Source: Dehalococcoidia bacterium
GTDB lineage: Bacteria > Chloroflexota > Dehalococcoidia > DSTF01 > JACRBR01
Direction: 5' to 3'
Assembly: GCA_031430415.1 (NCBI GenBank)
Contig: JANPBN010000097.1
Span: 1-33,923, forward strand
DNA: 33,923 nucleotides
The stretch's first letter is position 1. The number at the start of each line of letters is the position of its first letter. The position numbers were made by a program, and so were the translations under genes. Shown here one piece after another: positions 1,805 through 25,351 of this stretch. Under the pieces are notes generated by a model. That model saw nothing but the letters and a program-made list of their open reading frames with translations, had not been told where the DNA came from and searched no databases.

Positions 1805-2068
1805 TCACGCGTCAACCACGTCCCGGACGCCGCACAGCGCGCCCGTGTGTGTATCGCCGTCCTTGGTGATGTCGAAGTCCACGATGTAGTTCGGCCCGAT
1901 CGATGCACCGACGCTCTGCGCCACTTGGGACAGATTTACCGCATTGACGGTCGTTTCGGCGTTGATCGGGGCGACTTCCTTGCCATCGCTGCACGTGTCG
2001 CCATCCGTTTTCAGGACGCTCGGGTCGGTGTTGTAGTGGCAGATCTCGCGCGCGTTGCCAAGCCGCTA
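1805..2068 (-). pseudogene. C-terminal fragment of a calcium-binding/dockerin-like secreted protein (no start codon; preceded by an in-frame TAG)
   Basis: The frame is absent from the ORF track because it has no Met. It reads RLGNAREICHYNTDPSVLKTDGDTCSDGKEVAPINAETTVNAVNLSQVAQSVGASIGPNYIVDFDITKDGDTHTGALCGVRDVVDA*. It shows coding-like GC3 and DGD/DxDxxxDG loops similar to neighbouring secreted proteins. Confidence 0.3.
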
Positions 2069-2196
2069 GGCACGACCTCTAGCGTCCGCCGAGCGCACAA
2101 GGCGTCCCCTCAGCTTCGCAGCTCGGAACGCGGGACATAAGCGATTGCCCATAACAACCGCACGTATCTGTTGTTCTCTTGCACAATCGTATTCGG

Positions 2197-2229
2197 CTTA
2201 ACCGCGGGCTAACCACGGAGGCGTATCGT
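2197..2229 (+). promoter_or_regulatory. SARP-type promoter: heptamer direct repeat (11-bp period) plus -10 box upstream of the repeat-protein gene
   Basis: CTTAACC(2197-2203)-GCGG-GCTAACC(2208-2214)-ACGGAGGCG-TATCGT(2224-2229). The geometry matches the three minus-strand sites at 24032, 30497 and 30796. It lies about 60 nt upstream of the ATG at 2291. Confidence 0.55.
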
Positions 2230-2290
2230 GGTGTCTGCCGGGGTTCCGACCGGTGGGCTACGCGCATATCGTGGAATCAGGAGAGAGCCA

Positions 2291-3349
2291 ATGCTGAACA
2301 ACATCTACCGACGGCTGGGCATGATGCTTATCGCCATCGCGGCGACGGGAGCGCTTATCCTCGGCGCCGCGTCACCGGCGTTCGCGGCAGACAGCGACGG
2401 GGACGGACTACAGGACGCAGACGAAGCGACGTACGGAACCAACCCTGCCGATCCCGACTCCGATGACGACGGACTCGTCGACGGCATCGAGGTTCTGTTT
2501 ACGCTGGATCCGCTGGACCCAGATACTGACGATGACGGCCTCAACGACGGGATCGAGGCAGTGTATGGCCTCAACCCGCTGGATTCCGATACCGACAACG
2601 ACGGACTGAGCGACGGCGATGAAGCGCTCGTGTACAACACGAACCCGCTGCTGGTCGACAGCGACAGCGACTACATCTCTGACGGGGATGAAGTCAACGT
2701 CTACGGAACGGATCCCAACGACCCGGACACGGACGGGGACGGCCTCTACGACATTTCTGAGATCGTTACCTATGGCACGGACCCGACCGACGCGGACAGT
2801 GATGACGACGGTCTCGATGATGGCATTGAGGTGTTCTTCGGCACGGACCCGAACGACGCTGACACGGACAACGACGGCCTGAGCGATGGCGACGAAGCGT
2901 ACGTGTATCACACGAATCCCTTCGATACGGACACGGACGACGACGGCTTGCAGGACGGCTTCGAAGTGGAAGTCGGCACGGACCCCGCTGACAGCGATTC
3001 CGACAACGATGCCATCAAGGACGGCGCGGATGTCGAGTTCGTGCAGACGGTGCTTCAGGGCATCTCGGACACGGTGTTCAAGAACGAGACGAACAAGGGT
3101 TCATGGCTATCGGAGCTCGACACAATCGAGAACTACATCCGGCTCGCCGTGTACCTCGACGCAATCGGTGCGGGCCCGTACGCGGAAGGTGTCGAGGCGC
3201 TGGCACTCGGTAAACTGAACGCGATTCTGCAGCACACCAACGGCTGCCCGACGGTACCGGATCAGAACGACAAGATCCTCGACTGCAACGCTCAGGCCGA
3301 GTTCCGGCCCGTGCTCCAGTTGCTCATATCGAACGTGACAGCGCTGTAA
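2291..3349 (+). CDS. Secreted protein with 10 tandem thrombospondin type-3-like calcium-binding repeats and a Cys-containing helical C-terminal module
   Basis: ATG at 2291 is preceded by AGGAGAGAG; the ORF-track start at 2228 lacks an RBS. Signal peptide MLNNIYRRLGMMLIAIAATGALILGAASPAFA/AD. Ten 22-23-aa repeats follow, of the form D[ST]D.DGL.DG.E...YGT[DN]P.D. The C-terminal ~100 aa are non-repetitive. Confidence 0.9.
   Translation: MLNNIYRRLGMMLIAIAATGALILGAASPAFAADSDGDGLQDADEATYGTNPADPDSDDDGLVDGIEVLFTLDPLDPDTDDDGLNDGIEAVYGLNPLDSDTDNDGLSDGDEALVYNTNPLLVDSDSDYISDGDEVNVYGTDPNDPDTDGDGLYDISEIVTYGTDPTDADSDDDGLDDGIEVFFGTDPNDADTDNDGLSDGDEAYVYHTNPFDTDTDDDGLQDGFEVEVGTDPADSDSDNDAIKDGADVEFVQTVLQGISDTVFKNETNKGSWLSELDTIENYIRLAVYLDAIGAGPYAEGVEALALGKLNAILQHTNGCPTVPDQNDKILDCNAQAEFRPVLQLLISNVTAL
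2390..3040 (+). repeat. In-frame tandem repeat array (about 66-69 bp unit, 10 copies) encoding the DxDxDG calcium-binding loops
   Basis: Repeats were read directly from the translation: DSDGDGLQDADEATYGTNPADP, DSDDDGLVDGIEVLFTLDPLDP, DTDDDGLNDGIEAVYGLNPLDS and so on, down to DSDNDAIKDGADVEF. Confidence 0.9.
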
Positions 3350-3371
3350 GGGCGCGGACACGAGAACTCTC

Positions 3372-3400
3372 GAAGGGGCGAAGCTTAAGGCTTCGCCCCT
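3372..3400. terminator. Bidirectional stem-loop between convergent genes
   Basis: AAGGGGCGAAGC (3372-3383), loop TTAAG, GCTTCGCCCCTT (3389-3400) form a perfect 12-bp GC-rich stem, followed by TTTC on the plus strand. It overlaps the stop codon of the minus-strand GT4 gene. Confidence 0.7.
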
Positions 3401-4527
3401 TTCTCATATACATCGCGATACACCTCCAGGTGGCGCGCGACACACCGCGTCCACGTCCACAAGCGTGCGCGTTCGGCGCCCGCGGCGACGAGACCGCGCC
3501 GCCGATCGCTGGAGCCGAGAACCTCGCGTATTGAGGCGGCGATTTCACCTTCGTTCGATGGGTTGAAGTACACGGCTGCATCACCCAAAACCTCGCGGAT
3601 CGCCGGCAGGTCGGACGCGACGACGGGCACGCCGCACGCGGCTGCCTGGAGAGGAGGCAGTCCGAATCCCTCGGCGAGCGAGGGAAACAAGAGCATCTCG
3701 GCATGCGTGTAGAGCGACCGGATGGTGGCGTCATCCAGCCCGTGCGCCAGTCGGACGCGTGGCGCGCACTCGAGCATGGCGACGAACTCCTCGATTGCCG
3801 CGGCGTGACCGGAGCCGGCATCGACGATCGCGACGAAGGAGTGGTGGAGTTCGCGCCTGGCGACGGCGTCGAACGCGACGAGGGCGCGGCGCAGGTTCTT
3901 GCGCGGCTCAAAGGATCCCGCGAAGAGCACGTACGGCTTGGCCAGACCCAGCGTTAGTAGGGGCGATGGGTCGGGGTTTGGAGCGAATGCGACGCCATTG
4001 GGTATCACCTCAATCCGCGACTCGGTTGCGCTCGTGACGGTCGTGATTTGTTTTCGCGAATCTTCGGAGACGGTGATCACGCGCGCGCTTCTAATGGCGC
4101 GGCGCAGGTTCCAACGATAGAACGCGCGGAGCCTCCACGGGAGGTCGGTGCCGTACAGGGTGAGCGGAATCACGTCGTGCACGGTCGTGATAACGGGGCA
4201 GTCCATTCCTGGAACGGGCGGCATGGACGCGCGGACGTGTGTTGCCGGTGCGTGGAAGAGGTCGAGATGATCGGCGGCGCCGGCACGGCGCAGCGTCCAC
4301 AACCGCGTTGCAATCGCGCCGAGCTTTTGTGGCGCCCTGGTGGACGGAGCGCGCCACGCCACGACGTCGGGCAGCCAAGCGGGTCGCGGTTCGCCCGGTG
4401 CGCCATAGGCGACGACCTCGACGCCGCCGATCGTGGCGAGACCGGAGATCAGGTGCTGCGCGTATTGCCCCATCCCGGTGAACAGCGTGGTGCCGGACAA
4501 TCCCCAGGCGTCGAATCCGATGCGCAT
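3385..4527 (-). CDS. Glycosyltransferase family 4 (GT-B fold); last gene of the cluster
   Basis: 380 aa. N-terminus MRIGFDAWGL is typical of GT4. The C-terminal donor-binding motif FPSLAEGFGLPPLQAAACGVPVVASD carries the E(x7)E signature. Confidence 0.9.
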   Translation of the reverse strand: MRIGFDAWGLSGTTLFTGMGQYAQHLISGLATIGGVEVVAYGAPGEPRPAWLPDVVAWRAPSTRAPQKLGAIATRLWTLRRAGAADHLDLFHAPATHVRASMPPVPGMDCPVITTVHDVIPLTLYGTDLPWRLRAFYRWNLRRAIRSARVITVSEDSRKQITTVTSATESRIEVIPNGVAFAPNPDPSPLLTLGLAKPYVLFAGSFEPRKNLRRALVAFDAVARRELHHSFVAIVDAGSGHAAAIEEFVAMLECAPRVRLAHGLDDATIRSLYTHAEMLLFPSLAEGFGLPPLQAAACGVPVVASDLPAIREVLGDAAVYFNPSNEGEIAASIREVLGSSDRRRGLVAAGAERARLWTWTRCVARHLEVYRDVYEKGAKP

Positions 4528-4530
4528 TCG

Positions 4531-5688
4531 CTAGGTGCGCACGCGCGGGCGCGCGCCGATCTCGTCGATGTGTTCGTCGATGCGGTGGGTGAAGGTGTCC
4601 CAACTGAACTGCGCGGCCCGCCCGCGAGCCTGTACGCCCATGCGATCGAGCGCGCAGTCACTCATCGCCTCCATGGCGCGCATAGCGCCGGCAAAGGCAG
4701 GCGCTGTATCTGGCAGCAAGAGGCCGGTGTGTCCGTCGACGACGGTTTCTCGTGGACCACCTCTGTCCGTCGCGAGCACCGGCTTGCCGCAGGCCATCGC
4801 TTCCAACGGTACAAGACCGAGGTCCTCGTTGAGTGCCGGATGAACCACCGCGTGGCTTCGCTGATAGAGGTGGACGAGTTCGTCATCACCCGGATTAGGG
4901 ACGAAACTGACGTCGGGGCGATCCGCCGCCAATGCGCGAAGATGACCAAGATAGGGTTCGCTCTTGCGGTCGACCATCCCGGCGATCACCAGCCTGAACG
5001 CATTGTCCGCCGGCCGGGGCTTGAAGAGTGTCCAGGCTTCGAGTGCCAACTCGACGTTCTTCGTCCACATGATGCGCCCGGGCACGAGGAAATAGGCATC
5101 GCGCGCACCGCCTGGGAGGAAACGGTCGCAATCGACGCCGTGGTAGGCGACTTCCACCCGGTCTGGGCTGACGAGGTTCGCGTCGAGCACGCGCCGCATG
5201 GTCTCGCGGCTGTTACAGAAGACTCTCGCGTAGCGCCGCCAGGCTGGCCGTTCGAGCCGAGCGTACAGCGTTGTCGCAAAGCGTTGCGGCAGATGCCGGC
5301 CATTCTGGAAGTACTGGCTGCGTGTCGCTTGGTCGTAGACGATTTTGAGCGGCGTCAGGCAGACGCAGGATGTCGGCACGGTCGTGCGAAGCGCAGTCAG
5401 ATTGCCAAGTCCTTCGCTGACGACGACCATAGCGTCGTGCGGCGTTGTATCGATCTTCTGGGTGAGGAGCGTGGCGCCGGCGCACGCGACATCGAGCAGG
5501 GAACGCCGCACCGAGACCTCGCGCAGCAGGCGGATGGGCATGCGCTGGAACTCCGGGAACGTGGCCTCCGGTTCGTAACGGTTGGTATAGAGCGTCCAGT
5601 CGTGGCGGCTGCGTGACATGAGTTCGAGTAGCGTGCGCTCAGCGCCGCCCTTGAGGTACACCCACGGATAGTAAAGTGCGGGTCTCAT
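4531..5688 (-). CDS. Glycosyltransferase family 4
   Basis: 385 aa. Motif HPALNEDLGLVPLEAMACGKPVLATDRGGPRETV. The ATG overlaps the upstream stop (ATGA at 5685-5688). Confidence 0.9.
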   Translation of the reverse strand: MRPALYYPWVYLKGGAERTLLELMSRSRHDWTLYTNRYEPEATFPEFQRMPIRLLREVSVRRSLLDVACAGATLLTQKIDTTPHDAMVVVSEGLGNLTALRTTVPTSCVCLTPLKIVYDQATRSQYFQNGRHLPQRFATTLYARLERPAWRRYARVFCNSRETMRRVLDANLVSPDRVEVAYHGVDCDRFLPGGARDAYFLVPGRIMWTKNVELALEAWTLFKPRPADNAFRLVIAGMVDRKSEPYLGHLRALAADRPDVSFVPNPGDDELVHLYQRSHAVVHPALNEDLGLVPLEAMACGKPVLATDRGGPRETVVDGHTGLLLPDTAPAFAGAMRAMEAMSDCALDRMGVQARGRAAQFSWDTFTHRIDEHIDEIGARPRVRT

Positions 5689-6866
5689 CGAGCTGCCTCA
5701 CGATAGACCTGGATCATCTCATCTGCGACGGCGTCCCAGCGGAAGCGCGCTGCATGGGCCAATCCGGCATTGGCGAGGCGCTCGTGCCGCCCGCGGTGGG
5801 TGAGCACAGAAGCGATCGTGTCGGCAAGCGCCTTCTCGTCCTCGGGATGGACGGTTGCCGCGGCAGGGCCGGCGATTTCGGCCAGCGCTGTGGTGCTGGA
5901 TGTGATGACGGGCGTGCCGCATGCCATCGCTTCGAGTGGCGGCAGTCCGTACCCCTCGTGAAGCGATGGATATGCGAAGACGTCTGCACCGGCGTACGCT
6001 GCAGGCAACTCCGCATCGTCGACATACCCGATGAATTGGATGCGGTCGCGCACGGCTGACTGCTCGTAGGCCGCGCGCACAGGGCCGGTTTTCCAGCCGC
6101 TCGCCCCTGCAATAACGAGGTGGTGCGGAAGGCCCTCCCGCCGCACGGCGACCTCGAACGACCGTATGAGCCGCGCAAGATTCTTCCGTGGCTCAACCGT
6201 ACCCACAAAAAGCACGTACGGCGTGGAAATCTTGCAGCGCGCGCGGAACGCTTCCACGGCGGAGCGTTCCTGAGGCATGAAGCGACTGCTTATGCCTTCA
6301 CCAACGATGCGGATCTTTGGTCGCACCGAGGGGAAGCGGGCGGCGAGTCGCTCCCCCGTGTAGGACGAAACGCACACGACGCGCGTGGCCTTCCGCATGG
6401 CGATCGCGGTGAGGACGCTGAGGTAGAGGTGCGATCGCAGGCGGTGCACAGAGCGGTCGAGGAACGCCATGTCGTGCACGGTGACGACGGATGGGCAGCG
6501 CAGCGCCACGGGCAGGATGTAGTTCGGCGAGTGGTAGACGTCGGGCTCGGTTCGGCGGACACCAAACGGAACGACGCACTGTTCCCATAGCGCGCGTGTG
6601 TATTCGTTTGGGGTAGGGAACGGCGCCCGCCTCCGCGTGATGGGAAGTGCGTCTAGCCCGTCGTCGGCCCTCGTCAGGAAGACATCCAGGCGCACACCAT
6701 CTGCCGTGGCCAGTGCGCGGATGAGCTCGTCGGTGTATCGCACTACACCCGAGAACTGGCCCCGAAGCGAGCGCCCCATCATTGCCACTCTCAGCGGCGC
6801 GATGTCATGCTCGATCCGGGATTCATCCGCAGCGAAGGGGCGATCGGTCGGCAGTGCGATGATCAT
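5685..6866 (-). CDS. Glycosyltransferase family 4
   Basis: Motif YPSLHEGYGLPPLEAMACGTPVITS. Start chosen at the internal ATG (MIIALPTD..), which forms an ATGA overlap with the stop of the GH99-like gene. The longer track ORF (to 6983) adds an Arg-rich extension that would overlap that gene by about 120 nt. Confidence 0.85.
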   Translation of the reverse strand: MIIALPTDRPFAADESRIEHDIAPLRVAMMGRSLRGQFSGVVRYTDELIRALATADGVRLDVFLTRADDGLDALPITRRRAPFPTPNEYTRALWEQCVVPFGVRRTEPDVYHSPNYILPVALRCPSVVTVHDMAFLDRSVHRLRSHLYLSVLTAIAMRKATRVVCVSSYTGERLAARFPSVRPKIRIVGEGISSRFMPQERSAVEAFRARCKISTPYVLFVGTVEPRKNLARLIRSFEVAVRREGLPHHLVIAGASGWKTGPVRAAYEQSAVRDRIQFIGYVDDAELPAAYAGADVFAYPSLHEGYGLPPLEAMACGTPVITSSTTALAEIAGPAAATVHPEDEKALADTIASVLTHRGRHERLANAGLAHAARFRWDAVADEMIQVYREAAR

Positions 6867-7972
6867 GGCGACGCACCGGGCATCGCTTTGAATCGGTCGA
6901 GGTAGCGCCGTGTGATCGCGATGTACTGGCGACCGAACTCGTCCGAATCGGCGATGTCGCTCGCCTCGTGAAACTCGTTCCATGTCTCGATGACGATCGT
7001 CCTCGCGCCGGTGTTCAACGCGCCTTCAAAGTTGCGCTCGTAGAACCGGCCATTCTCTCGATCCGCGAACCGTCCGCTGCGACCGGGACCGTCCAGCTCG
7101 CGCTCGTCGTATCCGGGGCCGACAGCGGCAATACTCGAACCGATGTCGCGAAACCCGGTCAGTGACGCGCCCCAGGCGTAGAATCCGTCCAGGTGTATCG
7201 GCCGTGACGGATCGAGCCCGCCATCGCCGACGTCGGTCGCAAATCGCCAGCTCGCCTCGGCGACGATGTAGGGTCGCACGCCGAAGTCCTCCTCGAACCG
7301 GCGCGAGACGTAGTCGAACAACTCCTGATCGAACGAGATCTCGAACCACGAAGCCCACATCCAGAGCGCCGGACGGCCGGAAACCATGGCCCACTGATCT
7401 CGCGGCAGGATGGAGTAGAAGGTGTTGATGAGGCTATAGAAACGGCGCTGATTGTCGGGGTTCGTAAAGTCGCGTTGCCCCTTCGGCCAGCGGCCGATGA
7501 GCCCTGTATCGAGGAACATGGCAATCTGAGGCGGATCCCCGCCTTCGGCTGACATGGCAGCCGCCGCACGCGACATGTTGGCGAGTCCCACGTCGCTCGA
7601 CGGCTCGGCATCGCCCCAGTAGACGGCGAGGGCGACATCGATGCCGGCGTCGGTCATGTCCGCGAATTGCTTCTTGAACCAGTCGGCGTTCCGGTAGCTC
7701 GCGTTCGGCTCGGCCGGGCGATCGGTGAGGGCGCCGTTGTGGGGGCCATCCGGCAAGTCGTACCAGTAGTAGAAATAGGTGTATGCCTGCCGTGGCTGGC
7801 TCGAATCGGGCGTTGCTTCGGCGAACGGCGGAAGCGCGACCGGTGGGCGGCTTCGCTTGGCCGAGGCGGAGACGCCCCAGAGTACGAAAAACGCCACGAC
7901 CAGGACGCCGCCAATGATGATCCAGCGCCGCCAGCGGTTCCGCCGTGTCGTCCCGCGCTCCATGAACGTCAC
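6863..7972 (-). CDS. Membrane-anchored GH99-like glycoside hydrolase (endo-alpha-mannosidase/mannanase family homologue)
   Basis: GTG start in a GTGA overlap with the upstream GT4. Basic N-terminus plus a single TM (WIIIGGVLVVAFFVLWGV). Blocks line up with GH99: YTYFYYWYDLPDG (FYYSWYGNPQFDG), GIDVALAVYWGD, LDGFYAWGASLTGF (FDGIYTYFATNGF), AAVGPGYDE (PSVGPGYID), IETWNEFHEASDI (ITSFNEWHEGTQIE). Both Glu of the N-E-x-H-E motif are present. Confidence 0.7.
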   Translation of the reverse strand: MTFMERGTTRRNRWRRWIIIGGVLVVAFFVLWGVSASAKRSRPPVALPPFAEATPDSSQPRQAYTYFYYWYDLPDGPHNGALTDRPAEPNASYRNADWFKKQFADMTDAGIDVALAVYWGDAEPSSDVGLANMSRAAAAMSAEGGDPPQIAMFLDTGLIGRWPKGQRDFTNPDNQRRFYSLINTFYSILPRDQWAMVSGRPALWMWASWFEISFDQELFDYVSRRFEEDFGVRPYIVAEASWRFATDVGDGGLDPSRPIHLDGFYAWGASLTGFRDIGSSIAAVGPGYDERELDGPGRSGRFADRENGRFYERNFEGALNTGARTIVIETWNEFHEASDIADSDEFGRQYIAITRRYLDRFKAMPGASP

Positions 7973-9156
7973 CGCGGCACCCCGGCGGCGGTCCGGGCTT
8001 CATCGAGCGACTGATCGGTGGCCGGAGCTCGGCCGGTGGCCGCGCGGTACACGTCCAATGTCTGGCGGGCTGTCTCCGCCCACGTGTAACGGCTGGCGCG
8101 GGCCCAGCCAGCCACGGACATCATCCGCTGCTCTCCGGGCGATGTGACGATGTCGAGGATTGCGGCGGCAAGAGCGGCATCGTCGAGGGGCGCCACAAGT
8201 CGCGCGGCGTCCCCAAGAATCTCTCGGTGCGCCGCCAGATCGGAGGCGATGACGGGTGTGCCCGCGGCCATCGCTTCGAGCGGCGGCAGGCCGAATCCTT
8301 CGGCGAGTGAAGGAAAGACGAACACTGTGGCATTCCGATACAACAAGGCGAGATCGCCATCGGTGAGGCCGGACACGATACGGACGCGACCATGCAGCCC
8401 AGACCGGCGAATCTCCTCATGGATGGGTATCGCGTCGCCAGAGCCGGCGGCTGCAACGACGACGAGCGCGAGGCCTGGTGCGGCGCTTGCCACGCGCGCA
8501 AACGCCTGAAGGACGGTGATGAGGTTCTTACGCGACTCGAACGAGCCCACGAACAGGACATAAGGCGTGACTTGATCGCGTCGCTCGCCGATGGGTGTCT
8601 GGACAACGCCGTTACAGACAACATCAAGCCGGTCAGCGGGCAGCGCCAGCAGACCAGAGATCTCGGCGCGCGATGCGCGGGAGACAGTGATGACGCGCGC
8701 GGCGCGGCGCACGGCGCCAAGGTTCCAGCGATACCACGCGCGCTGCCGCAACGGCAGCCGACGCGGGCCCTTACCGTACAGCGTCATCGGTATCACGTCG
8801 TGGAGCGTGACGACGAGCGGACACGTTAGGCGACGCGGGACGGGAGGCCATGCTGGCCGTGGATGCACCGTCGGCGCATGAACGACATCCAATCCGAGAT
8901 CGCGGGCTAGCTGAGGCAAGCGCCACATGTACGATGCGAGGAGCGAGAGCTTTCCGAGGTGGGGAACCGGAAGCATGTGTATGCCCACGCCATCGCTCGT
9001 TGTCATCGGGAGATCCGTACCCTCCGGAGCGAACAGCTCAATGCGGTGGTCGCCGGACGTGTCGGCGAGCGCACGTACGAGACCATCGACGTAACGTCCG
9101 ATGCCAGAGTAGCGCGTCTCTGGCCCCAGAATCGACGCGTCGATGCCGATCCTCAC
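7969..9156 (-). CDS. Glycosyltransferase family 4
   Basis: Motif FPSLAEGFGLPPLEAMAAGTPVIASD. Start set at the GTG (V)RIGIDASILG, which forms a GTGA overlap with the upstream stop. The track ORF extends to 9240 with an Arg-rich overlapping extension. Confidence 0.85.
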   Translation of the reverse strand: MRIGIDASILGPETRYSGIGRYVDGLVRALADTSGDHRIELFAPEGTDLPMTTSDGVGIHMLPVPHLGKLSLLASYMWRLPQLARDLGLDVVHAPTVHPRPAWPPVPRRLTCPLVVTLHDVIPMTLYGKGPRRLPLRQRAWYRWNLGAVRRAARVITVSRASRAEISGLLALPADRLDVVCNGVVQTPIGERRDQVTPYVLFVGSFESRKNLITVLQAFARVASAAPGLALVVVAAAGSGDAIPIHEEIRRSGLHGRVRIVSGLTDGDLALLYRNATVFVFPSLAEGFGLPPLEAMAAGTPVIASDLAAHREILGDAARLVAPLDDAALAAAILDIVTSPGEQRMMSVAGWARASRYTWAETARQTLDVYRAATGRAPATDQSLDEARTAAGVPR

Positions 9157-10370
9157 GACGCGACTCCGGTGTGCAAGATCTCGCCACAGACAACGGAGAG
9201 GTGCGCTTCGACGCGTCTGGCCGCGGACTCCCATGTCCACGATGCGGCGACTTCGCGGCCGTTGCGACCGAGTTCGCGCGCAGCCTGCTCGTCGGCGAGA
9301 ACCGCCGTGAGGGCAGCCGCAAAGGCCGGAGCGTCGCGCGGAGTGAGCAGGCCGGTGATCCCATCGATCACGCTTTCGGTGACGCCGCCTTCGCCTACAG
9401 CTATCACCGGCAGTTGCGCGGACATCGCTTCGAGCACAGCCAGCCCAAACGGTTCGGCGTGCGGGGCGTAAACAAACGCGCGCGCTCCCCCGTACGCCTG
9501 AGCGAGTTCGACATCGGTCACCCGTGCGCGGATCTCGAGCGAAACACTCCGCTCCATCGCCAGGCCGCGGAGGTGTTCGGCGACGCCCTCGTTCACGTGG
9601 TTGCCAACGATCAACAGCGGCGGGCGAAGCGCAGGCGACAAGAGAGCAAGCGACTCGATCAGGAACTCGAAGCCTTTGTGATGCTCGATCGCGCCGACCG
9701 ACAGCAGGTAACCGCCGTCCGATCGCCGCGGCGGAAAGCGCTCCGCATCGACGCCGAGGTAGCAGACGTGGGCGTCGCGTGCGTAGTAGCCGCGAATGAG
9801 CGAGGCGGTGTGCGCGGAGTTCGTCAGCACGGCCCGCGCGCGCGCGACGTTGCGCTGGTCTCGCCGCTTTGTGACGTCATCCAGAAGCGATTCCGCCGGC
9901 TTGTGCCAGAACGACCGCAAACGCTGATAGGCGGTAAGCGGGCCCGAATCGGGGCGGCATTCGTCCTGCAGGAAGCGACGGGGCGGTTCATGACAGTAAT
10001 ACGCGGCAGGTGTGCTCATGTACGCGAGCACGCTCGGCGCCTGGAGAAACTGACACGCACTCACGAGCGCCGCGTCGTATCGCGCGGCATCGATCTGTTC
10101 GGACATGTGCGCGTAGGCGTCCTCGAGGGCGTCAAGATCCTGGTAGCGGCGCATGTCGTTGAGGTAGAGGCCGAGGCGCTTCGGGCCGCGCGCACGGTAT
10201 GGCAACACGGTGACGCTGCCCGCGTACTCGTGGCTGTTCACGAACGCCCGGTCGGCGCTCTCCAGCGTGAAGACATCGATCTCGTGACGCTGCGCGAGGC
10301 GCTTGCACAGCTCATGGATCGCGCGGGCGGCGCCCCCGGACGGGTGGTTATGGACGAGCGCGATGCGCAT
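9153..10370 (-). CDS. Glycosyltransferase family 4
   Basis: Motif YAPHAEPFGLAVLEAMSAQLPVIAVGEGGVTESV. Start set at MRIALVHNHPSGGA, preceded by GGGAGGG at about 9 nt. This overlaps the Wzy-like gene end by 23 nt. The alternative start is 10427. Confidence 0.85.
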   Translation of the reverse strand: MRIALVHNHPSGGAARAIHELCKRLAQRHEIDVFTLESADRAFVNSHEYAGSVTVLPYRARGPKRLGLYLNDMRRYQDLDALEDAYAHMSEQIDAARYDAALVSACQFLQAPSVLAYMSTPAAYYCHEPPRRFLQDECRPDSGPLTAYQRLRSFWHKPAESLLDDVTKRRDQRNVARARAVLTNSAHTASLIRGYYARDAHVCYLGVDAERFPPRRSDGGYLLSVGAIEHHKGFEFLIESLALLSPALRPPLLIVGNHVNEGVAEHLRGLAMERSVSLEIRARVTDVELAQAYGGARAFVYAPHAEPFGLAVLEAMSAQLPVIAVGEGGVTESVIDGITGLLTPRDAPAFAAALTAVLADEQAARELGRNGREVAASWTWESAARRVEAHLSVVCGEILHTGVAS

Positions 10371-11886
10371 CGACGGTGCCCTCCCATTCAGCTTCGAGGG
10401 CAGGAGCGCGGACAGCGATTCCGGCAAACAGCCAGAAGAGGAATGTCACCTGTACCGCTGCCCACACGGGGTGATAGGCGCTCACGAAGAGCAAGCCCAC
10501 GCCGGCGCCCGCAGTGCCGAGCGTGATGGTCCGCAGCGCGACGTCCCGGACGCGGAGGCCGGCGAGCAAACTGTGGCATGTGGCCGTGAGGAGCATCGCA
10601 GCGAAGAGCACCAGTGCGACCACGCCCATCTCGAGGCCCATCTGCAGGTACCAGGTCTCGGTGGCCCACGGCGGCAGGCCGCCCTCGCCAAGACCGTTGG
10701 CTGTGATGGAGACGTGGCTACCGTTGCCCAATCCGAGACCCCACGGCCTCGCCCGGATGATCTCGACGCTATCGGTGATGAGACGCGTGTGCGCGCTGGC
10801 GGATGCCTCTTCGCCCGAAAACAGCTCGCGGAACACACCGAAGGATGCGCCCGAGACGATGAGGAATCCGAGCGCCATCGCGGCGACGCCCCACGACAAC
10901 CACGTCGCCTTGGCAAAGGAGCGTGACACCAGCACGAGGACGAGCAGACCCATCGCTGCGCCTGCGAGCGGCGCCCTGGCGATCGTCATGCCGAGCGTGC
11001 CGATCATGAGCAGCAAGAATGCTCCGGCCCAGACTTGCGAACGGCCACGAACCGAAAAGAAGAGCGCCGCTGCAACCGGGACCAGGAGTACCTGATAGAA
11101 CGCGAGGCCCAGATCCGCGAGGAACAGCGACGACGCGCGCGGCAGTTCGCCTGAACCGAGGATCCGCGACCGCACAAACTCGACCTCGTGCGGCGTGCCG
11201 ATGGCAGCGGTGAAGTCCTGGTACCCGAGCATGTTCAGCACGCCGTTGCTCAGGTTCGGCGCGGCGAACTGGACCACAGCGACGCCGGCGATCACGATGC
11301 TCAGCGCGATCAATACCTTCAGTATGAGCCGCACGTCGTCACGCGTGAGCGTCAGCCCCCGGCCGACGAAGTACGCAAGCAGGTAGAGCGCGTCTTGCCG
11401 AACCGCGAGCGCGCGCACGAACGGCGTGGAGCCGCCTACGCTTCCCGGATAGAGCGAATATCCAACGACGAGCGCGATAAACGACAACACGAGAATGTCG
11501 AGGAAATGCACACGGGGTGCGCGGCGCTGGAGGAACAACTCGTGAACCATGCGGACCGCGAGTACGACGATGATCTCGTCCTTCCACAGCTGACTGGCGC
11601 GCAAGACCGGAGTGGAGTGCGTGGCCGCAAATGCCGCGAACGAGATGAACCGGGCGAGCGTGATCAGCACCACAAGGGCGATGACGGTTCGGGTGGGCCA
11701 CTGCCAGGCGATCCACGCAAGCACGGCGGCGAACGCGAGAGCGAGCAGCAGAACGGACATGCCCGCGACTACGCTGCCAAACAGCACGACGCCGCCGAAG
11801 GCGACGAGCGCGGACACACCAGCGGCGCGGCGGACCCGCGCGAGTGCTCCCGATGGCGGGATGTAGGTGAACTCTGCGAAGGTCAC
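10348..11886 (-). CDS. Polytopic membrane protein of the O-antigen ligase/Wzy-polymerase-like family
   Basis: About 512 aa with at least 10 hydrophobic helices. It has a periplasmic-loop-like segment (RPWGLGLGNGSHV....TETWYLQMGLEMGVVAL) of the type seen in Wzy_C/WaaL-like proteins. GTG start (VTFAEFTY) is in a GTGA overlap with the upstream GT2. The track extension to 12090 is Arg/Pro-rich. Confidence 0.7.
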   Translation of the reverse strand: MTFAEFTYIPPSGALARVRRAAGVSALVAFGGVVLFGSVVAGMSVLLLALAFAAVLAWIAWQWPTRTVIALVVLITLARFISFAAFAATHSTPVLRASQLWKDEIIVVLAVRMVHELFLQRRAPRVHFLDILVLSFIALVVGYSLYPGSVGGSTPFVRALAVRQDALYLLAYFVGRGLTLTRDDVRLILKVLIALSIVIAGVAVVQFAAPNLSNGVLNMLGYQDFTAAIGTPHEVEFVRSRILGSGELPRASSLFLADLGLAFYQVLLVPVAAALFFSVRGRSQVWAGAFLLLMIGTLGMTIARAPLAGAAMGLLVLVLVSRSFAKATWLSWGVAAMALGFLIVSGASFGVFRELFSGEEASASAHTRLITDSVEIIRARPWGLGLGNGSHVSITANGLGEGGLPPWATETWYLQMGLEMGVVALVLFAAMLLTATCHSLLAGLRVRDVALRTITLGTAGAGVGLLFVSAYHPVWAAVQVTFLFWLFAGIAVRAPALEAEWEGTVDAHRARP

Positions 11887-12857
11887 TGTGCGAACACCGT
11901 TTCGAGACTGCGCTGTGCTGCGACGTCGACAGGATCGTGCGAATACGGCGCGGGCCCACCGCGGCGGCGGAGCACATCGAGCAACGCGCGCGTCTGGGCG
12001 TGGTAGTAGCTGTCGTGGCGGTGGCGGCGGGAGACCGCCGAGCGGACGCATGTCTTCGCGAGTGTGAGCGCCAGGCGGCCAGCGGCCCATGCGCGCACGA
12101 CCACTCCTCCGTGGCGAAAGGCGAGCATGAAATAGTTACGGCATGCGTAGTACCGCGCGATGCGCGGATCGAGGCGTTTCGTCGACTCGGAGACGGCGTG
12201 CCAGATCCGCGCGCGTGGAGCAAAGTACGTGCGCACGCCGCGTTTGCCGGCGGTGAGACACCAGTCGACGTCTTCGAGATAGAGAAAGTACCGCTCGTCC
12301 ATGGGTCCGGCGATGGCGGCACTTTCCTGCGACAGGAATAGAGAACAGCCAGACGCCCACTGCACTTCGCGCGCGCGATCGAACGATCCCGCTGGCAGGC
12401 CGAGCCCGATGTGCTCGCGATTCAGCCACGGCCACTTGAGGAGGCCACCGGCGCTCCAGATGCGTCCCTCTCCGCCTCCGACGAGGATTTCCGGCGCAAC
12501 GATCGCCGGGCCGTTGACCGTCTCCGCCGTTCGGACGAGTTCGGTGAGCGCGCTTGGGTCGGCGAGCGTGTCGTTGTTGAGCATCCACACGTACCTGACG
12601 CCAGCTTCGCGCGCCCAACGCATTCCCACGTTGCAGGCGCCGGCGTAGCCGAGGTTGCGTCCGGTGCGCACTATCTCGAGCTGCGAAAACTCGCGATCGA
12701 GCTCGTCGGCGGAACCATCGGTCGAGCCGTTGTCGATGACGGCGATGCGATAAGAGGTGTGGTCGAGGGCAAGCAACGAACCGAGACAGCGACGCGTTTG
12801 CGCCGCGCCGTTCCAGTTGATCACCACGATGCCTACCTGCTGCAACATTCCCGTCAT
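11883..12857 (-). CDS. Glycosyltransferase family 2 (WbbL/rhamnosyltransferase-like GT-A)
   Basis: VGIVVINWNGAAQTRRCLGSLLALDHTSYRIAVIDNGSTDGS, then NLGYAGACNVG and MLNNDT. Start at MTGMLQQ lies 5 nt after the upstream stop. The track extension to 13121 overlaps the upstream gene. Confidence 0.85.
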   Translation of the reverse strand: MTGMLQQVGIVVINWNGAAQTRRCLGSLLALDHTSYRIAVIDNGSTDGSADELDREFSQLEIVRTGRNLGYAGACNVGMRWAREAGVRYVWMLNNDTLADPSALTELVRTAETVNGPAIVAPEILVGGGEGRIWSAGGLLKWPWLNREHIGLGLPAGSFDRAREVQWASGCSLFLSQESAAIAGPMDERYFLYLEDVDWCLTAGKRGVRTYFAPRARIWHAVSESTKRLDPRIARYYACRNYFMLAFRHGGVVVRAWAAGRLALTLAKTCVRSAVSRRHRHDSYYHAQTRALLDVLRRRGGPAPYSHDPVDVAAQRSLETVFAQ

Positions 12858-12862
12858 CCCGC

Positions 12863-13525
12863 CTAGAACTCGTTCAGGACGACGCCGAGTACGGTGCTTC
12901 CAAGCCGCTCGATCTGCACGCGCGCGCGACGATGGACCGGCGCACCGGCATTCTGCGCGCGCATGACGTACAGCGCGTTGCCAGCTTTCCGTGCGGCGAG
13001 AAATCCGTCGCTGGAGAGCGTGGTTGGCGGCGTGTCGATGATCGTGTACATGTCCGAAGCGGCGGCGGCCTGAATCGCATCGTCGATGCGATAGCGGTTG
13101 TCCTGATTGGCCTCCGCCCATTGCATGAGGTAGACGCCCGGCCGGTTCGTCTCGGTGACCGACCGCCGCAGTTCCGGCGGAATACCATCGCGGAGTTGGC
13201 TGGCTCCGGCGCGGAACAACCGGCTCAGGGCGCCATGCTCCTCTTCGATCAACAGGACGCGGTGATCCTCGGCGAATGCAACCGCGAGATTCCCGGCGAC
13301 CAGTGATCGCCCATCGCCCGGGTGCGCGCTGACGACGGCGATGGCGCGGTTTGTCGAGTGCGTGAGGATCGCCTCGATATTCGCGCGGAGCAGCCGGAAT
13401 GACTGTGCGACCGCGCCCTCCGCCCGGCGGGAGATCAGCAACTCCGACATGTCCCGCGCGGGAGCAGTGCTGCCCGGACCAACCTGGTTGCCGTTGTGCG
13501 ATGGGGCTGGCGTAATGATCGACAT
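12863..13525 (-). CDS. BY-kinase-like (CpsD/CapB-type, MinD/ParA-fold) ATPase with degenerate catalytic motifs
   Basis: 220 aa, AGGAGG 5 nt upstream of the ATG. It follows the BY-kinase layout: AQSFRLLRANIE, a Walker-A-like VSAHPGDGRSLVAGNLA, and Walker B TIIDTPP. Walker A has R instead of K. The Walker A' position reads LLIEEEHG instead of LLIDaDLR. The protein ends ..GVVLNEF with no C-terminal Tyr cluster. Confidence 0.75.
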   Translation of the reverse strand: MSIITPAPSHNGNQVGPGSTAPARDMSELLISRRAEGAVAQSFRLLRANIEAILTHSTNRAIAVVSAHPGDGRSLVAGNLAVAFAEDHRVLLIEEEHGALSRLFRAGASQLRDGIPPELRRSVTETNRPGVYLMQWAEANQDNRYRIDDAIQAAAASDMYTIIDTPPTTLSSDGFLAARKAGNALYVMRAQNAGAPVHRRARVQIERLGSTVLGVVLNEF

Positions 13526-13533
13526 GCTGCCTC

Positions 13534-14904
13534 CTAACCCGTGATACGTGCGACTCGCCCGATCACGGGCGCCCCGAATTCGCGTTCGATGTCTTCCACG
13601 GTGACCGGCTCGCGTTCGAAGTAGGCCAGCACGTATACGGCGGTCACTGACACGAACACCGCTACGAAGACGCCTAGCGCGTACGTCAGGATCAACCAGA
13701 TCAGGCTTGTCTGCAGATGGGCATTTTGCAGGAGTAGCGCCCGGGCGCTCGCTGGTAACGTCCGCCCGGCGACTACGTCGATGACCTTCTGTTGCAGCGA
13801 GGACAGATGGGTCTCCGCGCGCTGCAAATCGAGGTTGAGCTTGCTGTACTGCGGCTCGAGCCCGGACAGTCGTTGTAATTCCGCCGTCTCGATCAGGATG
13901 GCGTTCCGAAGGACATCGGAGCCGGCCTGCGAACTGGCATCGGTGACGGTCAGCTGGTTCACGAGCGCCATCTGGGACTGGATCGCCCCGTCGAGCTGGG
14001 AGACGTTGTTGATGGATTGAAAGTCGCCGAGCGCGCCGACGGAGCCGTCAAAGTTGGCTTCGGCCTGGGCGAGCTGATCGCGCGCCTGGAGGAGAGGCGC
14101 TTCGCCTGCAGCACCGGCCTGCTCGAGGTCGGAGACACGATCGCGAAGACGAAGGACCGCGCTTTGCGAGAGCCCGACCTCAAACGACAGTCGCTCATAC
14201 TCTGGTTGGAGTCGAAGCAGCGACCCGAGTTGCCCCTGCGCGGCCGAAAGCGACGCGTTCTGCCCCGTTCCCTGCTGACCGCGGCCCGAAGTTGCCGAGA
14301 TCCGCGCCAATTGAAGCTGCGAGATCAGTCCGAGTTTCTGGTCGCGGCGCTGAGTCAGGGCATAGGCGTCGTTGTCGGTCTGAAAGCGCACCAATGCGCT
14401 GCGGGCTACATCGACATCGCCCTGTGCGATGTCGAGTTCTGTCTGGAACGCGCGCCGCACATCGCGACTATCCGGCGTGTTGATCTCGGCGAAGAGCACC
14501 TGCGCTTCCACCGCGGCGATGTTCGCGACGCGCAGCGCCGTTTCCTTGTCCGTGTGCTTGACTCGCACTTCGTACAGGAGGCTCGTGCTGGAACGACCCA
14601 CCGTCAGCTTCGGCTCGATGATCAGCCAGCCGCGCACCTGATCCGGCGTCGTGCCGTCGGCCAGCTTGGCGGCAATCCGTTCCGAAAGCGTCTCGCTTTC
14701 GGCGAGTGCATCGAACCCGATTTGCGCGGGCAAGTACTCGCCCGGCGGCGGGATGTACGACTGCAGTACGGCCACGGTAACGGCCGCCTCCGCCCTATCG
14801 GTGGCGCGGTGATAGGCCCAGAAACCGGCCAACGACACGACGATCGCGACGACAGGTACGAACCACCACCGAAGCAGCGCTCGAACAAACAGTCTCATCT
14901 CCAT
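13534..14904 (-). CDS. Polysaccharide co-polymerase / chain-length determinant (Wzz/CapA-like transmembrane modulator)
   Basis: 456 aa. N-terminal TM (WWFVPVVAIVVSLAGFWAY), a long Gln/Leu/Ala-rich helical middle region, and a C-terminal TM (LIWLILTYALGVFVAVFVSVTAVYVLAYF). It sits directly upstream of the BY-kinase-like gene. SD is AGGGGGTGG. Confidence 0.75.
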   Translation of the reverse strand: MEMRLFVRALLRWWFVPVVAIVVSLAGFWAYHRATDRAEAAVTVAVLQSYIPPPGEYLPAQIGFDALAESETLSERIAAKLADGTTPDQVRGWLIIEPKLTVGRSSTSLLYEVRVKHTDKETALRVANIAAVEAQVLFAEINTPDSRDVRRAFQTELDIAQGDVDVARSALVRFQTDNDAYALTQRRDQKLGLISQLQLARISATSGRGQQGTGQNASLSAAQGQLGSLLRLQPEYERLSFEVGLSQSAVLRLRDRVSDLEQAGAAGEAPLLQARDQLAQAEANFDGSVGALGDFQSINNVSQLDGAIQSQMALVNQLTVTDASSQAGSDVLRNAILIETAELQRLSGLEPQYSKLNLDLQRAETHLSSLQQKVIDVVAGRTLPASARALLLQNAHLQTSLIWLILTYALGVFVAVFVSVTAVYVLAYFEREPVTVEDIEREFGAPVIGRVARITG

Positions 14905-14916
14905 CGACCACCCCCT

Positions 14917-15975
14917 TTAGAGCACCGGCCTGCGAAACCGGATACTTCCACCAAGCAATGCGCCGAACGCGACGCAGTCATACGCAAAGTGAGCCAACGC
15001 CTTCGCAACGGGCCACCGGCCGCTCAACCGGCGCCGTGCAGCAAAGGCACCAAGGTACGGGAGCGTTAGGATGAGAGCCGCGCGGCGCCATCGCGCCAGC
15101 ACGACACCCGCGACGAATGCGTCGAACAGCGCGTGCGTCGGATGTACCCAGACGCCGAGCCACAGGTGACGGCGGAACTCTGGGTATCGTGCGGCCTTGG
15201 CCGGCCAGTTGTAGAAGCGACGAGGCTGCGTCACCCATGAGAATGCGGACAGCCGCATCACTTGATGGTGCACAAGCGCCGTCTCCGCGAACCTGGCGTC
15301 CCAACCGAGGCGGCGCACGCGCCAGCCGAGGTCCACGTCCTCCCAGTAGTGGCAATCCGGATCGAAGCCTCCGGCCGCCAGGATCGCTTCGCGCGGATAG
15401 CAGACATTGGAGGTCGAGAATGAGCCATCCAATCGCCGTGTTTCGATGAAGTGATTGAACAGCGGCTGCCGAGCGCCGGGAAGCGCCGCGGTGCGTCCCT
15501 GGACGATCCCGGTTCCCGCGCCGACAGCGGCGAGCATGGCGCGTAGCCAGCCGGCGGAGGGAACGCAGTCGCTGTCGGTAAATGCGACGTACCGGCCCCG
15601 CGCGAGGTCGACTCCTACGTTACGCGCGATGGCAGGGCCACAGTCACGGACCATTCGCACGCCCGTAAAGTCCACGGACGTGTGAGTGGCAACGTCACGC
15701 ATCAAGGCGGACGAGTCGTCGGTAGATGCGTTGTCGACGACGATCACTTCGTACTCGTCGTGCCGGAGGTTTTGGTCAAGCAGCGCAGCGATCGTTTGGG
15801 CGACGAGGTCGCGGCGATTCCGCGTCGGCACAACGACGGAGATGGCTGGCGCAGCGGAACGCGGGCCGCCGGTAGCGATAATGTCGTACAGGTCACGTCG
15901 CGCGCGGTTAGCGTCCGGCGCGGATGCCTGTGCTGGCGCGACTCCCTGGCCGTTGTGGCGCATCGTCAATGTCAC
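14917..15975 (-). CDS. Glycosyltransferase family 2 with C-terminal membrane segments (paralogue A)
   Basis: ISVVVPTRNRRDLVAQTIAALLDQ, VIVVDNASTDDS, DxD FTDSDCVPSAGWLR, DVDLGWRVRRLGW, hydrophobic C-terminus. Start is either the GTG at 15975 (GTGA overlap with the upstream stop) or the ATG at 15963. The track extension to 16116 overlaps the upstream gene. Confidence 0.8.
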   Translation of the reverse strand: MTLTMRHNGQGVAPAQASAPDANRARRDLYDIIATGGPRSAAPAISVVVPTRNRRDLVAQTIAALLDQNLRHDEYEVIVVDNASTDDSSALMRDVATHTSVDFTGVRMVRDCGPAIARNVGVDLARGRYVAFTDSDCVPSAGWLRAMLAAVGAGTGIVQGRTAALPGARQPLFNHFIETRRLDGSFSTSNVCYPREAILAAGGFDPDCHYWEDVDLGWRVRRLGWDARFAETALVHHQVMRLSAFSWVTQPRRFYNWPAKAARYPEFRRHLWLGVWVHPTHALFDAFVAGVVLARWRRAALILTLPYLGAFAARRRLSGRWPVAKALAHFAYDCVAFGALLGGSIRFRRPVL

Positions 15976-17012
15976 AGGACAATGCTCCGCTTCCGAATGC
16001 TGCTCTGGATCAGCGTGGCAGAGAGCAACGCCGAACTCTGCGCTTGCAGGGCGAACCTGGCGGCCGCTCGCCCCCAGCGCTTGGGAGGCCATACATCGCG
16101 CCGAACAGCGGGCCACGTCGTCTGGATCCAGGGCAGCGTCAGGAGCAACCCCGCACGGTGGCGCCGGCTCGCGGCCACACCAACGGCGGCAAGGCAGAAC
16201 ATGGCGCTCTGACGGTGCAGGAAGTAGCGGCCATAGAACGACGTCCGTCGCAGCTCTGGAATACGCGCCGCAAGCTCAGGCAGAATCTGGGCCGCGAGCG
16301 GCTGAAACAGGTAGCTCTTGAGCGAGATGGGTGAAGCCTGGTGGTAGACGATGGCATCCTGGGCAAACTCGGATCCGCTCCCCGCGCGCTTGATCCGCCA
16401 CGCGAGGTCCGTGTCATCGCCTCCCACCGGTTGCCCCCACGAGTAGGTGCGGAACTGTTCGTTGAAGCCCTGGTTCGCGATGAAAGCCTCGCGGCGGTAG
16501 AAGACGTTGGCCGTCGCGTACAGTCCGTCCTCATGATTGATCTCGTAGATCTGGTGCATGAAGAACGCCGGGTCGGGTCCATCCCACACCGGGCGAATCG
16601 GGCCGCAAACAACATCGACGCCCGGCTCGAAGCGGACGACCGCGCTGCGCAGCCACCCGGGCGAGGGCACGCAGTCGCTGTCGGTAAAGGCGAGGATCTC
16701 GCCGGATGCCATTTCGGCGCCGCGGTTACGAGAAGCGGCCGGGCCGTCGTCATCCTTACGCAGATAGCGCACGGGAAAGGGGCTCGCATTCATCGCGGCG
16801 CGCACGACGCCTTCGGTGCCGTCCGTGGAGGAGTTGTCGACGACGATGACTTCCATGCGGTCGACCGGATAGACCTGATTCGAGAGCGCGCCGAGAACAT
16901 CGCTCAGGAGGTGCGCCCGATTTCGCGTCGGGACGATCACGGTGACGCTCGGCCAGGCGGCGCGCAGGCCGGCTGCTTCTTCGTACGGCTGGACGGCGCT
17001 AGTACTCACCAA
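15972..17012 (-). CDS. Glycosyltransferase family 2 with C-terminal membrane segments (paralogue B)
   Basis: 346 aa, GTG start. SVTVIVPTRNRAHLLSDVLGALSNQ, VIVVDNSSTDGT, FTDSDCVPSPGWLR, DTDLAWRIKRAG. Same architecture as 14917..15975. Confidence 0.85.
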   Translation of the reverse strand: MVSTSAVQPYEEAAGLRAAWPSVTVIVPTRNRAHLLSDVLGALSNQVYPVDRMEVIVVDNSSTDGTEGVVRAAMNASPFPVRYLRKDDDGPAASRNRGAEMASGEILAFTDSDCVPSPGWLRSAVVRFEPGVDVVCGPIRPVWDGPDPAFFMHQIYEINHEDGLYATANVFYRREAFIANQGFNEQFRTYSWGQPVGGDDTDLAWRIKRAGSGSEFAQDAIVYHQASPISLKSYLFQPLAAQILPELAARIPELRRTSFYGRYFLHRQSAMFCLAAVGVAASRRHRAGLLLTLPWIQTTWPAVRRDVWPPKRWGRAAARFALQAQSSALLSATLIQSSIRKRSIVL

Positions 17013-21825: not shown

Positions 21826-21864
21826 GTGGTTGTTGTGCCTCGGCTTCGTTGCAATCCGCGCGTA

Positions 21865-22914: not shown

Positions 22915-22948
22915 GGTTCCTCCTCCGGTTTGGTGCGGCCGCACATCG

Positions 22949-23992: not shown

Positions 23993-24031
23993 GCGCTGCG
24001 GCCTCGAATAGGTGGCATAGGGACGGTCGGT

Positions 24032-24065: not shown

Positions 24066-24199
24066 GGAACGACGGATTTGGCCTGCGCCGATCGCTGCCT
24101 GGCCCGCTATGAAGATGCGTTCAACCGGGGTACCGCGGCGAATCGGAATCGGCGGAGAGGCGGGAACGTCCGGCGCACGGAGTGCCAGTTATTGGCGGG

Positions 24200-25345: not shown

Positions 25346-25351
25346 CAGCCG

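Follow-up and report, generated by a model that had tools for sequence, protein, structure and literature searches.

A membrane-anchored relative of GH99 glycosidases, labelled DUF5010, encoded in a polysaccharide cluster of a Dehalococcoidia bacterium

The DNA stretch analysed here (33,923 nucleotides in full length, hereafter the window) belongs to a Dehalococcoidia bacterium of the phylum Chloroflexota (assembly GCA_031430415.1, contig JANPBN010000097.1, positions 1 to 33,923), a host known from metagenome assemblies only. According to Pfam and profile annotation, the region 3.4-31.9 kb is a single polysaccharide cluster carried by the minus strand. Among its GT4 glycosyltransferase genes lies an open reading frame (ORF), already recognized by an initial annotation of the window, that encodes a protein of the GH99 superfamily of DUF5010 type (hereafter the target protein). 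Our analysis indicates that this protein is homologous to GH99 enzymes across the whole domain and that it probably is a membrane-tethered endo-alpha-glycanase that processes the polymer made by the cluster. Its features are given below, residues being counted from ATG 7963 (add three for numbering from GTG 7972).

6863..7972, minus strand: ORF of the target protein (GH99 superfamily, DUF5010 type), 369 amino acids from GTG 7972, 366 amino acids from ATG 7963
7925..7945, minus strand: Arg-rich stretch RRNRWRR, residues 7-13, predicted cytoplasmic N-terminal flank
7865..7921, minus strand: single hydrophobic helix, residues 15-33, IIIGGVLVVAFFVLWGVSA, signal anchor, or uncleaved or cleavable signal peptide
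7757..7777, minus strand: beta-1 motif YFYYWYD, residues 63-69, aligning with FYYNWYG of BtGH99
7505..7516, minus strand: FLDT, residues 150-153, at the end of beta-3 and at the position of GH99 H[I/L]EP, with the acid kept as Asp and the rest changed
7169..7189, minus strand: DGFYAWG, residues 259-265, proposed equivalent of GH99 DGFYTYF in a manual alignment based on topology
7109..7120, minus strand: GPGY, residues 282-285, common to GH99; Y285 belongs to the family consensus and is not invariant
6965..6979, minus strand: N-E-F-H-E, residues 329-333, with the predicted catalytic pair E330 and E333 (E333 and E336 in GTG numbering)

The best Pfam match of the target protein is DUF5010 (PF16402), with 49.3 bits for a cut-off of 23.7, residues 93-359 being aligned on positions 37-317 of the 333 of the profile (281 positions). 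Since this score reaches only 49 bits, the clade found in the window appears remote from the family as modelled. All named homologues are recorded by NCBI as 'DUF5010 domain-containing protein' and the precomputed domain PF16402 is found in nearly all homologues. The GH99 model (PF16317) is also passed (37.7 versus 33 bits), but for residues 281-342 only, which correspond to positions 246-306 of 341. No NCBIfam model exists for the target protein, and WbsX (PF14307) does not match it at E <= 0.01. In a single-sequence phmmer search against PDB sequences, only GH99 enzymes were matched, through residues 281-341 (E 1e-6). With a profile of 43 homologues, the match to GH99 reached E 6e-14 and the beta-1 motif was added.

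Furthermore, an alignment of the target family was compared with a GH99 alignment of 25 sequences built from full-length genes in metagenome loci. One of these, the ORF of locus L081, has the length of the BtGH99 chain of PDB (382 amino acids) and holds a 60-residue segment of BtGH99 at 100% identity. Global comparison of the two alignments by hhalign gave a probability of 99.7% (E 6e-26) and local comparison 99.15% (E 4e-19), with residues 13-366 of the target protein facing residues 3-379 of BtGH99 at 22% identity over the aligned columns. The AlphaFold2 model (pLDDT 89.5, pTM 0.85) shows an N-terminal helix (residues 8-34) followed by a barrel of the (beta/alpha)8 type, with a hairpin between beta-5 and beta-6 that GH99 enzymes do not have. 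When this model was compared with PDB by Foldseek, the top 36 matches were all GH99 structures (Bt, Bx and human MANEA; E 3e-14 to 1.6e-11, TM-score 0.55-0.68), followed by 5ngw (6e-10) and then by GH71 alpha-1,3-glucanases (about 1e-8). Alignments and model together thus demonstrate homology with GH99 across the whole domain and a predicted fold of GH99 type. Hence, the GH99 likeness proposed by the initial annotation stands as far as homology and fold are concerned, but the best family is DUF5010, one GH99 signature motif is not kept and a second one probably is not either (see below). The target protein is a member of a distinct, uncharacterised clade of the GH99/GH71 superfamily that Pfam labels DUF5010.

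The structural neighbour that ranks between GH99 and GH71, 5NGW, is an unpublished or unindexed PDB entry named 'Glycoside hydrolase-like protein'. At the sequence level, the family profile detects no likeness to it, and no relevant paper was found.

Conservation was examined in the set of 43 homologues, which show 37-67% identity. W67, W116, D152, T153, G282, P283, G284, R302, E326, E330 and E333 are invariant in this set. The N-E-x-H-E motif with both acids (WNEFHEAS), which the initial annotation had pointed out, aligns on NEWHE of BtGH99, so that its two invariant Glu correspond to E329 and E332 of this enzyme. With GH99, the family also has in common the motifs FYYxWY (beta-1), GPGY, R-E-N-G and N-E-[WF]-H-E. 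The target protein was then mapped against the signature motifs of GH99, five in all, among which motif 3 is H[I/L]EPY and motif 5 is E-W-[H/G]-E (PMC11025385). Motif 5 is kept as E330-F-H-E333 (E329/E332 in Bt, E333/E336 in Bx). Motif 1 is also kept, the invariant W116 being located at the position of W189 of MANEA. Motif 3 is not kept: the target protein has F150-L-D152-T-G, in which only an acid (Asp) remains. As for motif 4, its Tyr (Y323 of MANEA, Y252 of Bx) is replaced by W264 when DGFYAWG is aligned by hand on DGFYTYF. This alignment agrees with the strand order of the model, but hhalign and MAFFT L-INS-i place the segment elsewhere. Since the automatic alignments disagree with the model from beta-4 to beta-6, the equivalence of W264 with Tyr252 stays a manual assignment.

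The first acid of the dyad is Glu in the retaining GH99 enzymes and Asp in the inverting GH71 enzymes, and the two families also differ in the aromatic residue close to the dyad, Tyr in the former and Trp in the latter (PMC12394665). The target protein therefore apparently combines the acid of GH99 with an aromatic residue of GH71 type, the Tyr beside the first Glu being probably replaced by Trp. In BxGH99, E333 acts on O2 of the mannose in subsite -1 and E336 is the acid (PMC6001782). If this mechanism is kept, the sugar in subsite -1 should be manno-configured. On the basis of these residues, we tentatively suggest that a manno-configured sugar would be present at the cleavage site and would be cut by the neighbouring-group mechanism of GH99 (through a 1,2-anhydro sugar), a proposal that we consider doubtful.

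The N-terminus of the target protein carries six Arg in its first 14 residues, followed by the sole strongly hydrophobic segment of the protein, a 19-mer (residues 15-33) with a mean Kyte-Doolittle value of 2.55. A basic stretch followed by a hydrophobic helix is found at the N-terminus of 39 of the 43 homologues, typically with three to eight basic residues before the helix and none to three after it. According to the positive-inside rule, the barrel would be located outside the membrane, and the catalytic domain is thus predicted to be extracytoplasmic, in agreement with the basic N-terminus, single transmembrane segment and outside location proposed by the initial annotation. Cleavage of the hydrophobic segment at an A-S-A site is possible. 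Several homologues have a Cys right behind this segment, in the manner of lipoprotein signals, and some carry dockerin domains. The target protein (7925-7945) and many homologues, among them P0002, P0005, P0018, P0020, P0025, P0049, P0074 and P0079, display, just before the helix, a poly-Arg run that ends in Trp, R-R-(x)-W. This run may be a positive-inside anchor only or a Tat-like signal.

The gene of the target protein lies close to the end of the polysaccharide cluster. The genes of this cluster are listed below in transcription order, followed by the gene that converges on its end.

30859-31863, minus strand: SARP/BTAD regulator
29743-30471, minus strand: small polyprenyl-phosphate sugar-phosphate transferase
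28703-29890, minus strand: SDR protein, nearest to CDP/dTDP-glucose 4,6-dehydratases
27939-28868, minus strand: nucleotidyltransferase, nearest to glucose-1-phosphate cytidylyltransferase
after the nucleotidyltransferase gene, in the upstream half of the cluster, minus strand: three S-adenosylmethionine (SAM) methyltransferases
25352-26950, minus strand: beta-propeller protein of 532 amino acids with six delta-60/DUF5122 repeats (356 bits)
24200-25345, minus strand: APH-type kinase
20632..21825, minus strand: GT4, strong GT4 Pfam match
18818-20635, minus strand: methyltransferase-GT2 fusion
17790-19271 (ATPase) and 16999-17889 (permease), minus strand: ABC-2 exporter
14917-17012, minus strand: two GT2 genes
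13534-14904, minus strand: chain-length (PCP) protein
12863-13525, minus strand: tyrosine autokinase
11883-13121, minus strand: GT2
10348-12090, minus strand: Wzy_C-type membrane protein
9153..10427, minus strand: GT4, strong GT4 Pfam match
7969..9240, minus strand: upstream GT4 adjoining the target gene, strong GT4 Pfam match
5685..6866, minus strand: downstream GT4 adjoining the target gene, strong GT4 Pfam match, with an ambiguous start (ATG 6866 or about 80 nucleotides further downstream)
4531..5688, minus strand: GT4, strong GT4 Pfam match
3385..4527, minus strand: GT4, last gene of the operon, strong GT4 Pfam match
2228-3349, plus strand: secreted protein with TSP3 (thrombospondin type 3) repeats, convergent with the end of the cluster

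As proposed initially, the target gene is located among GT4 genes, six in all: its two neighbours and four others match GT4 Pfam models. The longest ORFs called at 9153-10427, 10348-12090, 11883-13121 and 12863-13525 (all on the minus strand) overlap by 80-260 nucleotides. Their true starts are therefore probably located downstream and the coordinates given are upper bounds. The only sugar-nucleotide genes of the window are those encoding the proteins resembling glucose-1-phosphate cytidylyltransferase and CDP/dTDP-glucose 4,6-dehydratase. No Wzx flippase, LCP ligase or GDP-mannose gene was found in the window, and a search of the window for mannose-specific sugar-nucleotide genes and for hints of GT4 specificity gave nothing, the GT4 matches carrying no sugar specificity.

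The genes around the target are certainly tightly packed on one strand. Overlaps of four nucleotides with both GT4 neighbours, and translational coupling on both sides, had been proposed. The sequences GTGA (7972-7969) and ATGA (6866-6863) are indeed present, but both overlaps hinge on the choice of the start codon. On the upstream side, translation from ATG 7963, which is the start retained by the protein database gene call for an identical public protein (P0001, 366 amino acids), leaves a gap of 5 nucleotides and no overlap. On the downstream side, the conserved N-terminus of the GT4 protein, LRVAMMGRSLRG, begins about 80 nucleotides past the stop of the target gene, and the earliest possible start of its orthologues lies 137 nucleotides (L001) and 86 nucleotides (L002) past this stop. 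Translational coupling with both neighbours is thus only possible and was not confirmed. A consensus scan of the region 2000..18000 detected no promoter-like site, and terminator-like sites at chance level only.

Three other observations concern the cluster itself. The gene of the beta-propeller protein (25352-26950) is placed between methyltransferase and kinase genes, inside the polysaccharide cluster. The region 16999-28026 (minus strand) combines a kinase, three SAM methyltransferases, the methyltransferase-GT2 fusion and the ABC-2 exporter. This upstream half recalls the logic of capped O-polysaccharides, with a chain-terminating kinase/methyltransferase and Wzm/Wzt, and here it stands alongside Wzy, PCP and tyrosine kinase genes. 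Secreted proteins with bacterial TSP3 calcium-binding repeats are encoded at two places of the window (2228-3349 on the plus strand and 239-874 on the minus strand). In a related Dehalococcoidia locus (L003), a gene encoding a TSP3-repeat protein (11889-13013) is likewise convergent with the cluster end.

When GTDB was scanned with one genome per species, 316 loci encoding relatives of the target protein were retrieved. An exhaustive profile search yielded 337 protein clusters (50% identity) at E <= 1e-30, and 1614 when the threshold was relaxed to E <= 1e-10. Synteny was examined in the best 80 of the 316 loci. Fifteen of these 80 encode homologues of the PCP protein, the tyrosine kinase, GT2, the Wzy-like protein and GT4 enzymes in the order found in the window, with the homologue of the target gene at or near the end; a GT4 gene is located directly upstream of it in 12 of the 15. 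In the window, the conserved module upstream of the target gene spans 9153..17012, from the two GT2 genes to the GT4 gene at 9153-10427. Since some contigs are short, the whole module is not found in every one of these loci. They belong to Chloroflexota (L001-L007, L012 and L018), uncultured Actinomycetota (L016, L019, L026, L034 and L046) and Dormibacterota (L017). In L001, collinearity with the window extends to the three GT4 genes located past the target gene, and in L003 the target homologue is followed by a methyltransferase gene and by the convergent TSP3 gene. The link with polysaccharide biosynthesis noted initially is thus conserved in all three of these phyla and is not a matter of chance.

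With BtGH99 as the root, a neighbour-joining tree divides the short forms embedded in clusters into three basal groups. The other loci, mostly from Verrucomicrobiota and Planctomycetota, constitute one derived clade, whose proteins reach 500-900 amino acids and have C-terminal extensions without any Pfam match. No CAZyme family is enriched among 123 neighbours of the homologues located outside clusters. Genetic context and tree together indicate that a conserved tie to biosynthesis characterizes the short membrane-anchored form.

The long forms have other particularities. In about 20 loci (L030 7659-9770 on the minus strand, L022, L024, L025, L027, L028, L036, L041, L050, L053, L058, L062, L068, L072 and others; those checked belong to Verrucomicrobiota), the gene of the long-form DUF5010 protein has a conserved divergent neighbour that encodes about 680-730 amino acids with a hydrophobic N-terminal segment. 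These neighbours have no Pfam family in common. The divergent neighbour weakly matches the long-form DUF5010 protein of L058 (E 8e-6) and, by eye, seems to have repeats like the C-terminal domain of the long forms. Moreover, a C-terminal extension of about 150 amino acids without Pfam match is conserved in the long forms of L029 (9896-12376), L066 (9824-11455), L014 (8343-9953) and L070 (189-1877, from an isolate of Aquisphaera insulae). It includes YxYF..DD.F, then VEYFD and W+TA.F.L.DARF, and then NQN.GADFR, and could be an undescribed carbohydrate-binding module.

Since its catalytic residues are invariant, the target protein is predicted to be active. Furthermore, the short form is inherited together with the glycosyltransferase, Wzy-like and PCP/kinase module, and therefore most likely acts on the product of this module. 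From its homologues and gene context, we infer that the target protein is a catalytically active, membrane-tethered endo-alpha-glycanase comparable to PslG, which processes the polymer of its own cluster; we consider this physiological role as probable. In this scheme, a (beta/alpha)8 barrel bearing a Glu-x-x-Glu pair of GH99 type would be tethered on the external side of the membrane and co-expressed with cytoplasmic GT4 and GT2 enzymes, the Wzy-like protein and the pair formed by the chain-length regulator and the tyrosine kinase. It would cleave, in endo mode and outside the membrane, the alpha-linked polysaccharide made by the cluster. This cleavage might serve to trim the chains, to control their length, to release them or to clear polymer that has stalled.

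Several points weigh against this proposal. DUF5010 and the target clade consist of proteins uncharacterised as to activity, and the TM-scores to GH99 structures are only moderate. The topology is derived from the positive-inside rule alone, and three basic residues are found within the 15 residues that follow the helix (AKRSR region). FLDTG in place of H[I/L]EPY and the apparent Trp at the position of Tyr252 imply that the target protein may depart from GH99 in specificity and even in stereochemistry. Finally, a retaining enzyme could work as a transglycosylase and not as a hydrolase.

The glycanase proposed here has counterparts among known systems. PslG, a GH39 enzyme encoded by the psl operon of Pseudomonas aeruginosa, is likewise a hydrolase encoded inside an exopolysaccharide operon and tethered to the inner membrane. 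Its gene is placed between glycosyltransferase genes, as that of the target protein is. PslG is bound to the inner membrane, contributes to Psl production by its hydrolytic activity and interacts with the chain-length (PCP) protein PslE (PMC6813494). However, its GH family is an unrelated one, of classical retaining chemistry, and its diderm host has an outer-membrane export step. Exopolysaccharide clusters often include hydrolase genes (PMC9075953). BcsZ, AlgL, PelA and PgaB are degradative enzymes that are co-encoded with biosynthesis and whose action on the nascent polymer takes place outside the cytoplasm (PMC4928890, PMC8829089, PMC9894940, PMC5933820), but they belong to synthase-dependent systems and have other folds and families. 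The resemblance to polymer-trimming hydrolases noticed initially is the most economical reading and fits PslG, BcsZ, AlgL and PelA (PMC9075953, PMC6813494, PMC8829089). GH99 enzymes are encoded by catabolic loci or located in the Golgi, whereas the target protein has a membrane anchor and belongs to a biosynthetic operon; a literature search for a link between GH99 and exopolysaccharide clusters found nothing relevant. The mycobacterial methylmannose polysaccharide hydrolase MmpH is also an endo-hydrolase encoded with biosynthetic genes, and it is specific for its polymer. It is an (alpha/alpha)6 barrel (PMC9883506); since the folds differ, homology with the target protein was rejected, so that the likeness to hydrolases of methylmannose-polysaccharide loci suggested initially does not hold beyond a functional analogy.

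The target protein might instead be a true GH99 endo-alpha-1,2-mannosidase or mannanase, the cluster making an alpha-mannan-like polymer. As in GH99, the first acid of the E-x-H-E dyad is Glu and not Asp as in GH71, and W116 occupies the position of W189 of MANEA, which is linked with a preference for mannose in subsite -2. GT4 enzymes are retaining and usually form alpha-linkages. The upstream kinase, methyltransferases and ABC-2 exporter are reminiscent of the pathway of the capped polymannan O-antigen of Escherichia coli O9a. However, only 61 of the 341 positions of the GH99 model are matched and DUF5010 fits better, motif 3 of GH99 and probably motif 4 are not conserved, and the GT4 matches do not designate any sugar. 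The lack of GDP-mannose genes in the window, where nucleotidyltransferase and dehydratase look like those of CDP/dTDP-glucose, also argues against a mannan. No feature of the window is indicative of mannose, so that the alpha-mannan-like backbone hinted at by the initial annotation is unproven and a dedicated mannanase seems unlikely to us.

The protein could also be an extracytoplasmic transglycosylase or ligase that would use the retaining mechanism to branch or cross-link the polymer, or to attach it to a wall acceptor, by transfer of its segments and not by hydrolysis. The gene is firmly built into a biosynthetic module, and the window contains neither an LCP-type ligase nor Wzx. Members of the related WbsX family (PF14307) are annotated as glycosyltransferases; two long-form homologues weakly match this family in the region of the C-terminal motif, below the cut-off, and PF14307 is on record for one protein, P0093. 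The WbsX name was, however, founded on gene context alone, and a literature search for it retrieved almost solely papers on filarial antigens. Among the characterised members of the GH99/GH71 superfamily, none is a dedicated transferase, and the free-standing homologues located outside biosynthetic clusters, some of them with dockerin, look like ordinary secreted hydrolases. A dedicated transferase is thus rather improbable.

A bolder version of the glycanase proposal would see in the target protein not a housekeeping trimmer but an enzyme devoted to release or termination within a Wzy-type pathway of monoderms, with neighbouring-group chemistry of GH99 type operating next to the polymerase. 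Either the finished alpha-linked chain would be cut from its lipid-linked stem or transferred to a wall acceptor, or a terminal capped disaccharide would be removed after export, an option suggested by the upstream kinase, methyltransferase and ABC-exporter genes. We view this as a long shot. If true, the enzyme would found a new CAZy family, one that works in biosynthesis.

Lastly, it appears very improbable that the target protein is an inverting alpha-glucanase like those of GH71, with an alpha-glucan product or a foreign alpha-glucan as its substrate: GH71 structures are significant in Foldseek (E about 1e-8), the residue at the position equivalent to Tyr252 is apparently Trp as in GH71 and the neighbouring GT4s match models of glycogen-synthase type below threshold, but the first acid is invariantly Glu and almost exclusively Asp in GH71, every GH99 structure ranks above GH71 in the fold search and the Trp assignment comes from a manual alignment. 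The GH71 alpha-1,3-glucanases (Agn1p and AnGH71C) share the superfamily, the cleft and the position of the D/E-x-x-E dyad with the target protein, but they are inverting, with Asp as first acid, and have a C-terminal beta-sandwich, whereas the target protein has Glu and no additional domain.

The family of the target protein can therefore be viewed as a new enzyme family in a well-known role. The name DUF5010 is absent from about 8 million full-text papers, and the cluster described here gives this family, which has no literature, its first functional and testable context. That exopolysaccharide operons encode a glycanase of their own is a rule that would thus be extended to a new enzyme superfamily, and also to poorly studied phyla, namely Chloroflexota, Dormibacterota and uncultured Actinomycetota. 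Since it associates a Glu-x-x-Glu pair like that of GH99 with a putative Trp like that of GH71, the clade would be a natural intermediate between the active sites of the two families and a test case for the way in which minor alterations of the active site bring about the switch between retention through an epoxide and inversion. Moreover, such enzymes would be candidates for the specific degradation of biofilm matrices.

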